Shown: positions 19,815 through 21,674 of the stretch, piece after piece
Position numbering within the stretch: position 1 is the stretch's first letter
Layout of the letters: the number at the start of each line of letters is the position of its first letter
Source: a virus
Lineage: Duplodnaviria; Heunggongvirae; Uroviricota; Caudoviricetes
DNA: 48,253 bases
IMG/VR virus record: IMGVR_UViG_2531839665_000024
Direction: 5' to 3' (one strand)
The notes under the pieces: generated by a model
The model's database searches: none
What the model was told of the DNA's origin: nothing
What the model saw: the letters and a program-made list of their open reading frames with translations, nothing else
Position numbers and translations under genes: made by a program

Positions 19815-19837
19815 TATGCCAATTGTTTACTAAAAAT

Positions 19838-19868
19838 TATTAAAAATGGGGCGTTGCAACGCCCCCAA
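19838..19868 (-). terminator. Rho-independent terminator for nmpC (perfect 18-bp palindrome GGGGCGTTGCAACGCCCC)
   Basis: Palindrome 19848-19865 followed on the minus strand by a U-rich tract; preceded on the plus strand by an A-run. Confidence 0.6.
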
Positions 19869-19933
19869 AAATAAAGGGTAATATATAACAGAAGGTTTAT
19901 ATAGTTAGAAGCAAGGTTGTGCTCCTAAAGGAA

Positions 19934-19987
19934 GTGGCTTGAGGGAGCCACTTATATGTTGGGGAGGCAAAGCCTCCCGCAACATAT
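19934..19987. other. Two GC-rich stem-loops immediately 3' of the nmpC stop
   Basis: GTGGCT-N6-AGCCAC and ATATGTT-GGGAGGC-AAA-GCCTCCC-AACATAT nested hairpin. Confidence 0.35.
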
Positions 19988-20002
19988 CTTTTAGTAATCA
20001 AA

Positions 20003-21085
20003 TTAGAACTGGTAAACCATACCTACAGCAACGATATCATCGGTAGCAACGCCAGATGCTTTCGTGAAATCGCTCTTATCAATCAGGTTGATTTTGTAAT
20101 CAACAAAAGTGGACATATTTTTGTTGAAGTAATAGGTTGCACCTACATCAATATATTCAACCAGGTCCTGAACACCCCACGCACCCAAGTCTTTTCCTTT
20201 AGATTGCAGGTAAGCAACGGACGGACGCAGACCGAAGTCGAACTGATATTGTGCAACTACTTCGAAGTTTTGTGCTTTGTTGGCAATATGGTTATTACCA
20301 AAAACAGTCATGTTCTGGGTTTCAGAATAGGTGGTAGCCAGATAGATGTTGTTCGCATCATATTTCAGACCAGCTGCCCATACTTCAGCATTTTGACCAG
20401 ATGCATTCAGGCTGTTGTTACCGTAGATAACCTGATTATTAGTGCGGTCAGATTTAGCATAGGTTGCACCTACACCGAATCCTTCATACTCATAAGTAGT
20501 GGAGAAACCGAAACCATCACCATTAGCTTCAGTTACGTCAGTGCGGTCATTTTTACCCTGATACTGAGCAGCAAAGTTCAGACCATCAACCAGACCAAAG
20601 AAGTCGTTGTTACGATAAGTTGCAACACCAGTGGTGCGACCAGTCATGAACACATCTGTTTGGGTCCAGGTATCGCCACCGAATTCTGGCAGAACGTCAG
20701 TCCACGCACCGATGTCATATGCTACACCGTAGTTACGGCCGTAATCGATTGAGCCGTAGTCCCCGAATTTCAGGCCTGCAAATGCAAGACGGGTTTTGTC
20801 TTTGGAGGAGCCTTGAGATTCAGCGCGGTTGCCTTTGAATTCATATTCCCACTGACCGAAACCAGTCAGTTGATCGTTGATTTGGGTTTCACCTTTGAAG
20901 CCAAGACGGGCATAAGTAGTATCACCATCATCTGCATCATTAGAGGAGAAGTAGTGCTTGGCATTAACTTTCCCATATAGATCCAGCTTGTTACTGTCTT
21001 TATTATAAATTTCAGCTGCCTGAGCAGACATCGCCATCAGTACTGATGCAGCTACAGCAGAAATTGCCACTGTTAATTTTTTCAT
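20003..21085 (-). CDS. nmpC: Outer membrane general porin (NmpC/OmpD type), apparently intact
   Basis: 360-aa ORF with signal peptide [23 protein letters not shown], aromatic C-terminal residue (YQF), beta-barrel porin-like composition. Confidence 0.9.
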
Positions 21086-21513
21086 CGTGAGCCCTTTTTT
21101 TTGAACTATTATTAAAAAATGATGTCACTGCGCGATAAATATTCATCTAATCAATGTGATTATTTCAAGATGTAAGTTTTGGTTTCTCGTTTGATTTGTG
21201 AAGTAGATCTCTATTTTTATCTGAACTTTTTTCTATCGAATCCTATTCATGGATCTTGGCTGAATAAAAATAAATCTATTAGCCAATTTATATTAACGGC
21301 TGTTATTTATAAGTGCTCTGTAATTTGAAGGTTCAATTTAAATCGGCTAAAAATAACACTGGAAATTATTTGTTGGTTATTTGTTGAGATTTGCTTATGT
21401 ATTTGTAGTGGTGTTTTCAATACTCGGTAGCATTCTCGCAAATATCATTTTGTGGTTTACGTACGTAAAAAATTGGTTATGCTGTTAAGAGTGGTTACTT
21501 CGTCACACAGCTT

Positions 21514-21546
21514 AAACCCGCCGTCGAGCGGGTTTTTCCATTTTTT
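21514..21546 (+). terminator. Rho-independent terminator upstream of the lysis genes (tR'-like)
   Basis: Hairpin AAACCCGC-N6-GCGGGTTT followed by TTCCATTTTTT. Confidence 0.6.
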
Positions 21547-21674
21547 GAGTCTCGATATTAGCTGATAACCCAATACCTGAGTTATTCACTGACTCCGAGT
21601 CTGTTACGTTTCTGCTTTTTTGCGATACGTTGTATTCCCTCAATTTACACCCGCTTTGTCTGCGAGGTGGGGTT

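Follow-up and report, generated by a model that had tools for sequence, protein, structure and literature searches.

Organization of the region

The window analyzed here, a stretch of 48,253 nucleotides deposited as IMG/VR virus record IMGVR_UViG_2531839665_000024, carries a porin gene in reverse orientation between its late antiterminator gene and its lysis genes. The features of this part of the window are given below, with the evidence on which each assignment rests in brackets.

19431–19814, plus strand: quuD, gene of the late-gene antiterminator Q, assigned to the Q21/Q933W family (Pfam PF06530, Q21 chains)
19836–19865, minus strand: predicted intrinsic terminator of the porin/ipeX transcript, the 18-bp palindrome 19848–19865 followed by a U-rich tail (terminator scan, fold)
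19842–20002, minus strand: structured 3′ untranslated region of the porin gene, about 160 nt with five predicted hairpins, corresponding to the ipeX RNA (fold)
20003–21085, minus strand: intact general porin gene, NmpC/Lc-type allele, 360 aa (open reading frame, profile, structure and K-12 alignments)
21105–21131, plus strand: candidate sigma-E promoter of the lysis cassette, GAACTA-16 nt-TCACT (consensus read from the sequence, primer arithmetic)
21131–21168, minus strand: putative porin promoter PnmpC (relaxed sigma-70 scan, K-12 literature)
21197–21212, no strand assigned: CRP-like site TGTGAAGTAGATCTCT (match of 8/10 to TGTGA-N6-TCACA)
21456–21483, plus strand: late promoter pR′ (homology to the annotated pR′ of 933W, conservation of the −10 element in relatives)
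21486–21506, plus strand: conserved initially transcribed block TAAGAGTGGTTACTTCGTCAC, putative start at about 21488–21490 (conservation in relatives)
21514–21546, plus strand: tR′, intrinsic terminator closing a leader of about 50 nt (terminator scan, fold, homologue of the 933W terminator)
21675–21890, plus strand: essD, S21-type pinholin gene with dual starts at 21675 and 21684 (Pfam Phage_holin_2_1, E 2e-35; annotation of identical genes)
21890–22387, plus strand: endolysin gene rrrD (Pfam Phage_lysozyme, E 1.3e-45; K-12 annotation)
22384–22845, plus strand: Rz (open reading frames, K-12 annotation)
22604–22786, plus strand: Rz1, embedded in Rz (open reading frames, K-12 annotation)

The antiterminator gene

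The QuuD protein matches the Pfam profile Phage_antitermQ (PF06530) from end to end (positions 1–118 of 118, E 3.5e-53) and the solved Q21 chains 6jnx and 6p18 distantly (E 7.6e-7). Over the whole gene there is one nucleotide difference to quuD of K-12. According to these matches QuuD is to be placed in the Q21/Q933W family and not in the lambda or the 82 family, and phage 21 is therefore a closer model for the locus than lambda. An earlier note on this DNA had argued from lambda Q; its expectation that Q acts downstream holds. We also considered QuuD as a phage 82-type Q. The features of the 82 pR′, which are published as an initial AAA, an extended −10-like element, GCC at +15–17 and a pause at U+25, fit the window poorly, and the Pfam and PDB matches are to Q21/Q933W, so that this assignment was rejected.

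Upstream of quuD an IS66-family block (ISEc8/ISEc23-like, 15935–19327) truncates ylcG and ends 104 bp before the quuD start codon. This block may weaken the supply of Q in the prophage represented by the window.

The porin gene and its 3′ untranslated region

The porin reading frame starts with ATG and contains neither a frameshift nor an internal stop codon. It covers the 16-strand porin profile Porin_1 of Pfam completely (1–337 of 337, E 4.6e-152), scores 514 bits with the NCBIfam model porin OmpC (curated cut-off 484) and spans with its residues 24–360 the full solved chains of OmpC, OmpK36, PhoE and OmpF (E 1e-136 to 1e-107). A signal peptide (residues 1–23) is followed by AEIYNK, the alignment of the mature protein begins at residue 24, and both the loop-3 PEFGG motif (LPEFGGD) and the C-terminal YQF with its terminal Phe are present. 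The protein can accordingly be assigned, as far as profiles and alignments tell, to the general bacterial porin class (OmpC/OmpF/PhoE/NmpC). When compared with the K-12 NmpC protein, rebuilt by removal of IS5, the identity amounts to 89.9%. Residues 1–148 are identical and the differences, among them a 3-aa and a 2-aa deletion, fall into short blocks of the C-terminal half only. The locus, part of a lambdoid prophage, sits between Q and S-R-Rz and is transcribed in the opposite direction to them, and judged by the protein identity and by flanks that are 96–100% identical the porin gene would be an ortholog of nmpC of K-12.

The earlier note had proposed an intact NmpC/OmpD-type porin of 360 aa on the minus strand, convergent with quuD. 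The profile, the solved porins and the NmpC alignment all agree with this proposal, and the alignments are free of frameshifts and premature stops. Its statement that the gene is disrupted by IS5 in K-12 is borne out as well, since IS5 follows codon 346 in the K-12 and phage 434B copies.

Downstream of the porin stop codon the transcript is predicted to fold into the five hairpins with a minimum free energy of −63.9 kcal/mol (z = −8.2), and none of 200 shuffled sequences folded as well. This stretch has an ipeX-like position and is about 96% identical to the respective stretch of DLP12. Its hairpins correspond to the published ipeX RNA, which is described in PMC12197685 as the untranslated stretch from the stop codon of the prophage porin to the rho-independent terminator and as part of the porin transcript. 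In the literature ipeX is also reported to lower OmpC/OmpF expression. With Rfam, which has no model for ipeX, at gathering as well as permissive thresholds, no family match was obtained for the 3′ untranslated region.

The palindrome GGGGCGTTGCAACGCCCC at 19848–19865 is perfect over 18 bp and continues with ATTTTTAATAATTTTT on the minus strand and with CAAAAATAAA on the plus strand. As the plus-strand continuation has no T-run, the palindrome should terminate transcription of the porin strand only, and we dropped the idea that it stops plus-strand transcripts of Q for lack of such a run. The palindromic terminator and the further GC-rich hairpins pointed out in the earlier note are both found, the former with its U-rich tail on the minus strand and the latter as the four additional hairpins of the ipeX RNA.

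Promoter signals in the AT-rich spacer

For the porin promoter PnmpC the candidate consists of a −35 element TTGAAA (21163–21168), an 18-nt spacer and a −10 element GAATAT (21139–21144) with a G as putative start near 21131–21133; the exact hexamers are our reading of the sequence. In K-12, according to PMC11677980, the promoter is at most 199 bp away from the start codon, its start mapped by 5′ RACE is a G, it is active, and sites for Crp, OmpR, IHF and MprA are reported with two Crp operators. Apart from few base differences the PnmpC region of the window is nearly identical to that of K-12. The center of the CRP-like site TGTGAAGTAGATCTCT is about 73 bp upstream of the putative porin start, and it is the sole such site in 21060–21460. 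We take 21197–21212 as the putative CRP site of the porin promoter.

The AT-rich spacer probably also holds a sigma-E promoter. A published reporter amplicon is described as extending from −121 to +650. It begins at a primer site that corresponds to window position 21013, and by primer arithmetic the start would then be near 21134–21150, next to the candidate GAACTA-16 nt-TCACT. A simple sigma-70 scan at its default threshold called neither pR′ nor PnmpC, both of which are weak matches to the consensus.

The late promoter and its leader

The late promoter comprises a −35 element TTTACG (21456–21461), a dyad TTTACGTACGTAAA (21456–21469) which overlaps it, and a −10 element TATGCT (21478–21483). 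The sequence 21455–21537 is 77% identical (E 1.6e-12 to 8e-14) to the sequence which in 933W and Stx2-phage II starts at the Q stop codon. The 933W record annotates this homologous stretch as pR′, qut and rho-independent terminator, and labels its own Q protein 'similar to Q protein of H19B and DLP12'. Almost all of 70 distinct relatives have TANNNT as their −10 element. In the window pR′ is displaced from Q by 1.64 kb through the reverse-oriented porin moron. The suggestion of the earlier note that the target of Q lies about 1.6 kb away within 21090–21630 agrees with the position of pR′ at 21456–21483, in the stretch homologous to the 933W unit. Neither the dyad nor the initially transcribed block has a second copy in the 48-kb window, for the dyad even when two mismatches are allowed. 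A remnant of pR′ beside the quuD stop codon was considered and rejected, the likeness there being too weak and a second copy within two mismatches being absent.

A similarity search gave eight relatives, with Q proteins of 45–100% identity, in which the initially transcribed block (TAAGAGTGGTTAC) is conserved; this conservation is unselected. The 70 relatives from IMG/VR were selected with the block pattern and are no test of its conservation. In phage 21 the SDPE TAAGCT at +2 to +7 occupies the same place as the conserved block, which by analogy is a candidate for containing the sigma-dependent pause element. Two hexamers may be considered. TAAGAG aligns with TAAGCT of phage 21, yet it would then be too near the conserved −10 element, and the alternative TGGTTACTT is without the T at the last hexamer position in the allele of the window. 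The start is placed tentatively at about 21488–21490, and either hexamer may be the pause element.

The stem of tR′ (21514–21535) is followed by TTCCATTTTTT, and from the end of the terminator at 21546 to the holin start codon at 21675 there are 129 bp. Both the location of a terminator roughly 130 bp before the holin gene and its interpretation as tR′ had been put forward in the earlier note, and the homology to the annotated 933W terminator speaks for the interpretation. A short terminated leader is conserved. The T-run begins 45–49 nt past the block in 51 of 59 distinct relatives, and in 38 of the 59 a hairpin of −7 kcal/mol or lower ends within 2 nt of the T-run, while 21 miss this strict threshold, several of them with shorter stems of about −5 kcal/mol. 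Taken alone the hairpin of the window is little better than shuffled sequences (z = −1.55). With RNAalifold on a set of 14 diverse leaders the terminator was missed owing to misalignment by indels, and the leader terminators were evaluated by per-sequence folding instead. The small invariant GUGG/CCAC stem which RNAalifold recovered is without covariation and is uninformative, as the search pattern fixed those bases. Rfam returned for the leader only a sub-threshold Trp-leader match that reflects the terminator hairpin, and a text search of papers for the leader sequence gave nothing relevant.

A candidate Q-binding element

We consider the dyad TTTACGTACGTAAA as a candidate for the Q-binding element between the −35 and the −10 element. 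In other clades the corresponding dyads are GCGTACGC, GCGGTCCGC, TGGAATTCCA, TTGTTATAACAA and TTCGTTACGAA; the pair GCGTACGC and ACGTACGT is an example of dyads from different Q clades. The dyad covaries with the Q clade irrespective of the cargo, the length of the gap and the downstream flank (adjusted mutual information 0.84 against 0.48), an association which could partly reflect physical linkage. A motif search located in phage 1H12 a dyad 1.9 kb from Q beside a different leader; BLAST detected no pR′ homologue in this phage.

The gap between Q and the late promoter

We surveyed 100 IMG/VR contigs with the leader and a Q gene on the same strand. The gap between Q and pR′ measures 5–40 bp in 23 of them and 0.6–2.5 kb in the other 77, where it nearly always holds genes on the opposite strand. 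Among this cargo are porins (34 contigs), KwaB (E 2e-150) and PDC-S20 (E 1e-177). In 933W and PhiR5_1, relatives with a Q of the same family, the gap is empty and pR′ abuts Q, while in mEp390, PhiR55_1, 569R4 and many IMG/VR contigs it holds other reverse-strand genes. The gap behaves as a cassette site and, judged by the genes found in it, appears to be a general slot for cargo such as porins, Kiwa and other defense genes. With its own promoter and terminator, and missing at the same position in related phages, the porin cassette is a moron. These relatives bear out the earlier reading of the porin as inserted cargo. The insertion site, given then as between Q and the lysis cassette, stands but can be stated more precisely as between Q and pR′.

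The module is widespread. The sequence 19327–22000 is 100% identical in 17 complete E. coli chromosomes among the matches listed, and of 5,426 genomes more than 2,350 contain 80% or more of this sequence at a single location. Phage PhiR68_2, deposited as a complete genome with E. coli ECOR13 as the host of record, carries the sequence with 100% identity, and terminase genes adjoin the module there. The presence of the identical module in this complete phage genome suggests that late genes can be expressed despite the gap between Q and pR′. None of the inspected RefSeq and GenBank records of the module marks pR′, leader or tR′.

Comparison with known systems

The closest known system is DLP12 of K-12, which has the same order and orientation (quuD - ipeX - nmpC - essD rrrD rzpD). 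Here quuD, the 3′ untranslated region, the spacer between porin and holin and essD are 96–100% identical to the window, and pR′, tR′ and the porin promoter region agree except for few substitutions. The two differ in the porin, NmpC of DLP12 having 365 aa and being split by IS5 after codon 346 whereas the 360-aa copy of the window is intact, in the terminator loop (GAGA in DLP12, TGCA in the window), in a 16-bp indel before the holin gene and in the IS66-family block upstream of quuD, which only the window has.

A lambdoid phage with an intact porin gene is reportedly PA-2. In work attributed to Blasband et al. in 1986 and Castillo-Keller et al. in 2006 its NmpC-like porin gene lc ('protein 2') is said to lie in the Q-S region and to be expressed in lysogens, with OmpC being down-regulated via the 3′ end of the transcript, an ipeX-like tail. 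The porin of the window would match lc by this description.

Phage 21 shares with the window the Q family and the cassette of S21 pinholin and SAR endolysin, although its Q protein is only distantly similar to QuuD. In order and spacing its curated elements (−35, QBE, −10, start, SDPE at about +2 to +8 and terminator, the last annotated at +2 to +50) agree with those proposed for the window. In phage 21 pR′ begins 7 bp past the Q stop codon and tRNA genes come after the terminator. The binding element of Q21 is a direct repeat (ATTGAGCA, AATGAGCA), whereas the window has a dyad in that region.

The Q proteins of 933W and H-19B are about 78% identical to QuuD, and promoter, leader and terminator are homologous (77–78%). 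The 933W dyad TTTACGATCGTAAA differs from that of the window in the two central bases only, and in 933W the Q stop codon is immediately followed by the −35 element. The placement of the cargo differs. That of 933W (tRNAs, stx) follows tR′ in the same orientation and is controlled by Q; that of the window precedes pR′, is encoded on the other strand and does not depend on Q. Lambda is more remote: its Q family is unrelated to QuuD, its leader measures 194 nt compared with about 50 nt in the window, and its pR′ adjoins Q.

Discussion

Taken together, we are highly confident that the locus represents the late-control ('qsr') region of an E. coli lambdoid prophage of the DLP12 type in which a reverse-oriented porin moron lies between Q and pR′. 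A backward porin gene between Q and its target promoter is already known as the nmpC/lc arrangement of E. coli prophages and is in this sense ordinary. Prophage porin genes between Q and the lysis genes, nmpC of DLP12 and lc of PA-2, were reportedly described in 1985–86, and the ipeX tail is said to have been described in 2006.

Three other explanations have to be weighed against this reading. The hairpin at 21514–21546 could end another plus-strand transcript, for instance from a sigma-E promoter near 21134, with Q acting next to quuD or nearer to the holin gene. Transcripts from the host sigma-E promoter reported upstream of the DLP12 lysis genes would indeed meet this hairpin, and just past the quuD stop codon there is a faint echo of the region upstream of pR′ (TTGTTTACTAAAAATT at 19825–19840). 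The echo, however, is without the CGTACG core, the −10 element and the leader, and dyad and leader occur in the window only at 21456–21506. The block of promoter, leader and terminator is homologous to a unit annotated as pR′, qut and terminator in 933W, its geometry agrees with the curated cassette of phage 21, and in the relatives the pR′ unit is always downstream of a same-strand Q, whatever intervenes. We regard it as very improbable that this hairpin is not tR′. About equally improbable is that the porin gene has decayed to a remnant like that of K-12, silent or nonfunctional and carried along without a function in lysogenic conversion. The copies of K-12 and phage 434B are broken by IS5, which according to PMC11677980 inactivates the gene 'in most cases'; the same paper states that the gene raises the sensitivity to colicins and phages. 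In the window, however, the porin gene has no interruption, and its product fits the porin profile and the solved porins over their whole length; signal peptide, PEFGG motif and terminal Phe are all kept, the differences to NmpC are in frame and in short blocks instead of being scattered, the promoter region hardly differs from the active one of K-12, and the same allele recurs without any difference in many complete genomes and in a phage genome deposited as complete.

It could also be that mainly host factors such as sigma-E and Hha govern the lysis cassette, as in the cryptic DLP12, and that the control by Q is vestigial, the IS66-family block severing Q from early transcription. This we consider unlikely, though less so than the two explanations above. 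N-modified polymerase of lambda normally passes terminators within insertions, quuD, pR′ and tR′ are undamaged, and apart from the block the window has the appearance of an entire lambda-like prophage from integrase to tail fibers. On the other side there is the position of the block (15935–19327) 104 bp 5′ of quuD with ylcG truncated, and the DLP12 lysis genes reportedly respond to RpoE and Hha and serve envelope functions. In favor of the qsr reading, the same genes are reported to be Q-dependent (Rueggeberg 2013). The question of host control bears on the present activity of the prophage element and not on the identity of the elements.

With the qsr reading we propose the following sequence of events. 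Polymerase starting from pR′ (21456–21490) would pause while transcribing the conserved initial block. Q, bound between the −35 and the −10 element and probably at the dyad TTTACGTACGTAAA, would load onto the polymerase, and the Q-modified polymerase would read through tR′ (21514–21546) into the genes of the S21-type holin, the SAR endolysin and the spanins and onward. Being a diffusible protein that binds DNA and is expressed from the early rightward transcript, Q should be unaffected by the 1.64-kb gap. On the minus strand the porin cassette would consist of a CRP-dependent sigma-70 promoter near 21131–21212, a leader of 46–48 nt, the intact NmpC/Lc-type porin gene, the 3′ untranslated region of about 160 nt with five hairpins and the palindromic terminator. 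Having its own signals and facing away from early and late phage transcription, the cassette is expected to be expressed in the lysogen. In that case the lysogen would make the prophage porin, OmpC/OmpF would be lowered by the ipeX tail, and the cell surface and its permeability would be altered. For expression in the lysogen and for the exchange of porins we rely on published work on DLP12 and on what is reported of PA-2.

Beyond the single locus we put forward tentatively, and with less than even confidence, that in the QuuD/Q933W branch the Q-binding element is a dyad-symmetric site with its center about 27–28 bp upstream of the start and that the gap between Q and pR′ is a general slot for cargo expressed in the lysogen, anti-phage systems included. 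In a limited search of the literature neither a dyad-type Q element nor a general cargo slot was found described. If true, a dyad-symmetric element would mean that Q is loaded symmetrically, unlike with the direct-repeat element of Q21, and the cassette of porin and ipeX would be one 'receptor-swap' occupant of the slot.

The exact coordinates of pR′, leader and tR′ are useful for the annotation of QuuD-type late switches, and the locus illustrates that Q need not adjoin its target. The analysis marks the prophage as the carrier of an intact and probably expressed alternative porin, and such a porin can change the antibiotic permeability, the colicin and phage receptors and the surface antigens of the host strain.

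The Porin Gene and Its 3′ End

The porin gene that the earlier note had placed on the minus strand between the late-gene antiterminator gene quuD and the holin gene, convergent with quuD, is present as an open reading frame in that arrangement.

19431-19814, plus strand: quuD, 127 codons, convergent with the porin gene
19848-19865, minus strand: porin terminator (terminator scan), perfect palindrome GGGGCGTTGCAACGCCCC
20003-21085, minus strand: porin, 360 codons
20020-20700, minus strand: variable part of the porin gene, codons about 150-355, with in-frame indels in short blocks
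21675, plus strand: start ATG of the S21-type holin

The encoded protein covers the entire Pfam profile Porin_1 (E 4.6e-152) and exceeds the curated cut-off of the NCBIfam model for porin OmpC, and its residues 24-360 align with the complete solved chains of OmpC, OmpK36, PhoE, and OmpF. We also compared it with an Escherichia coli K-12 NmpC rebuilt by taking out IS5 and one copy of the 4-bp target duplication. Identity between the proteins is 89.9%. Residues 1-148 are the same in both, and the sequences differ only in a small number of blocks within the C-terminal half, where two short in-frame deletions also lie. The protein retains its signal peptide, the PEFGG motif, and the YQF terminus. 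Because the matches are full-length, the differences are all in frame, and these sequence features are present, we conclude that the gene carries neither a frameshift nor a premature stop and is intact, as had been proposed. The K-12 gene is indeed broken by IS5, which lies after codon 346 in nmpC and likewise in the copy of phage 434B.

Compared with K-12 nmpC on the nucleotide level, the porin gene is a mosaic, with 98-100% identity in the first 450 bp of the gene and in the two flanks and about 80-85% in the remainder. On this pattern, part of the protein may have undergone allele exchange or diversifying selection. Phage 434B (OL657227.1) has the same NmpC sequence and IS5 insertion point as DLP12 (qsr′), the cryptic K-12 prophage; its record labels the stretch "region of 434 nonhomology", with the crossover in ylcG. 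This points to K-12 as the source of the region in the laboratory isolate.

The palindrome at 19848-19865 was called as a minus-strand terminator, in agreement with the earlier reading. It is followed by ATTTTTAATAATTTTT on the minus strand and by CAAAAATAAA on the plus strand, and because of the latter it terminates the porin transcript only. The further GC-rich hairpins that had been noticed are present as well; what had been missed is that together they make up a porin 3′ UTR of about 160 nt with five hairpins in its fold (z = -8.2). This UTR shares about 96% identity with its DLP12 counterpart and corresponds to the published ipeX RNA, in accord with what Castillo-Keller et al. (2006) reportedly described.

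Proposed Promoters in the Left Part of the Spacer

Besides the late promoter pR′, the AT-rich spacer contains in its left part the porin's own promoter, which had been overlooked. In K-12 the porin promoter has been mapped and is active; it is reported to be activated by Crp and repressed by OmpR, IHF, and MprA (PMC11677980).

21131-21133, minus strand: approximate G start of the best porin promoter candidate (sequence scan), TTGAAA, 18 nt, GAATAT
21134-21150, plus strand: approximate start of a candidate RpoE (sigma-E) promoter (consensus match), GAACTA, 16 nt, TCACT
21197-21212: candidate CRP-like site (from the sequence)

A published reporter fragment, with ends numbered -121 and +650, starts at 21013, so that the RpoE-dependent start reported for the lysis cassette falls near 21134-21150. 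The GAACTA-16 nt-TCACT element could accordingly be that promoter. Within 21105-21140 the putative porin and sigma-E starts stand back to back; since they are only a few bases apart, these divergent promoters may interfere with each other.

The Late Promoter and Its Terminator

QuuD matches PF06530 and, at a greater distance, the phage 21 Q protein of solved structure (E 7.6e-7), and thus belongs to the family named Q21/Q933W by Yin et al.; the pR′ of phage 82 was a false lead as a template for this region. Stx phages encode a Q about 78% identical to QuuD, and the Stx-phage DNA from the Q stop codon onward aligns with window positions 21455-21537 at 77-78% identity (E as low as 1e-15). The 933W record, in which Q is described as DLP12-like, assigns pR′ (TTTACG...TATCAT), qut, and a rho-independent terminator to this stretch. 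The transferred annotation gives the following features.

21456-21461, plus strand: pR′ -35, TTTACG
21478-21483, plus strand: pR′ -10, TATGCT
21488-21490, plus strand: approximate late transcription start
21514-21546, plus strand: tR′, stem 21514-21535 and T-rich tail to 21546 (also found by the terminator scan)

The curated record of phage 21 has the same compact geometry, namely -35, Q-binding element, -10, start, a pause element at +2 to +8, and a terminator by +50. The conserved leader block (21486-21506) and the dyad upstream of it each occur once in the 48-kb window. The 933W homology, the phage 21 geometry, the flanking features, and this single occurrence place the late promoter in the AT-rich interval where the Q target had been expected, 1.64 kb from Q, and bear out the assignment of 21514-21546, 129 bp before the holin ATG, as tR′. 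The pause hexamer could be TAAGAG, which aligns with TAAGCT of phage 21 but is very near the -10, or alternatively TGGTTACTT. K-12 DLP12 lacks a 16-bp stretch present here between tR′ and the start of the holin gene, TCTGCTTTTTTGCGAT (21611-21626).

Scanning IMG/VR with the leader block TAAGAGTGGTTNCNTNGNCAC yielded 120 contigs, a set which, being selected by the block pattern, informs on the flanking features and not on conservation of the block. The block is conserved in eight relatives from similarity searches, with Q protein identities ranging from only 45% to 100%. At the position of 21478-21483, nearly all of 70 distinct promoter regions carry the hexamer TANNNT, while the surrounding bases vary freely. 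Of 59 distinct leaders, 51 have a T-run starting 45-49 nt past the block, and 38 have a hairpin of at least -7 kcal/mol strength that ends no more than 2 nt from the T-run; several others have shorter stems.

The Dyad and the Cargo Slot

The dyad (21456-21469 in the window, followed by an A-tract) is centered about 27-28 bp upstream of the transcription start. In the 70 related promoters its position upstream of the conserved leader is fixed and its sequence variable: TTTACGTACGTAAA in the window, TTTACGATCGTAAA in 933W, and GCGTACGC, GCGGTCCGC, TGGAATTCCA, TTGTTATAACAA, and TTCGTTACGAA in other Q clades. The sequence stays with the Q clade regardless of cargo, gap length, or downstream flank, and the adjusted mutual information with Q is 0.84 for the dyad versus 0.48 for the downstream flank. 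Phage 1H12 retains the dyad 1.9 kb from Q despite a different leader. We therefore regard the dyad as a candidate Q-binding element, with physical linkage contributing to the association. The symmetry differs from that of the Q21 element, which is a direct repeat.

We determined the gap between Q and pR′ for the 100 contigs in which a Q gene on the same strand precedes the leader. The promoter adjoins Q (gap 5-40 bp) in 23 contigs; the other 77 have gaps of 0.6-2.5 kb, whose genes are with few exceptions in the opposite orientation, which agrees with the view of the porin as inserted cargo. The porin is the commonest occupant (34 contigs). Other contents are Kiwa KwaB (E 2e-150) with a membrane partner, a PDC-S20 KAP NTPase (E 1e-177), an HNH protein, PDC-M68A-like, lipoproteins, the lipocalin Blc, and many unannotated gene pairs. 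The Q proteins are alike up to a LEMD motif and diverge beyond it, so the left edge of the slot lies in the final Q codons; the right edge is directly upstream of the dyad. The variable slot is seen, with Q of type PF06530, at IMG/VR loci L012-L131 and phage loci L005, L006, L009, and L010.

Distribution and Neighboring Elements

The region 19327-22000 is 100% identical in 17 listed complete E. coli chromosomes and in the deposited complete genome of phage PhiR68_2, and 2,358 of 5,426 genomes contain at least 80% of it at a single location. Some thirty further phage genomes share the gene order at 92-99.9% identity, and outside the variable half of the porin the region is that of K-12 DLP12. 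To the left, between rusA/ylcG and quuD, an IS66-family block (15935-19327) removes the last ylcG codons and stops 104 bp short of the quuD ATG; none of the complete genomes of the collection has it in this context.

16006-16407, 16404-16751, and 16801-18339, plus strand: tnpA, tnpB, and tnpC of a complete ISEc8-like element
18423-19195, minus strand: second element, ISEc23-like, tnpA/tnpB end only

At the right prophage end, the only Rfam match in the window at gathering score is IS009 (RF02111; 220.9 bits, 47333-47531, plus strand), inside an open reading frame (46990-47565) downstream of a long one (43586-46990).

Proposed Working of the Locus

In the lysogen the cassette would be transcribed leftward from its own CRP-dependent promoter, giving the porin and the ipeX tail and thereby an altered set of major porins. 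Upon induction, Q made from the early transcript would bind at pR′ 1.64 kb away and load onto polymerase paused in the conserved leader, which would then pass tR′ into the genes for pinholin, SAR endolysin, and spanin and further into the structural genes. Since Q is diffusible, its distance from pR′ should not matter, and the unchanged module in deposited complete phage genomes is consistent with this.

The observation in the earlier note is thus confirmed and its interpretation supported, with refinements. The arrangement is that of the long-known qsr′/DLP12 nmpC and PA-2 lc locus and for this reason of low interest in itself; it is only the cargo-slot pattern and the Q-linked dyad that might merit more work.
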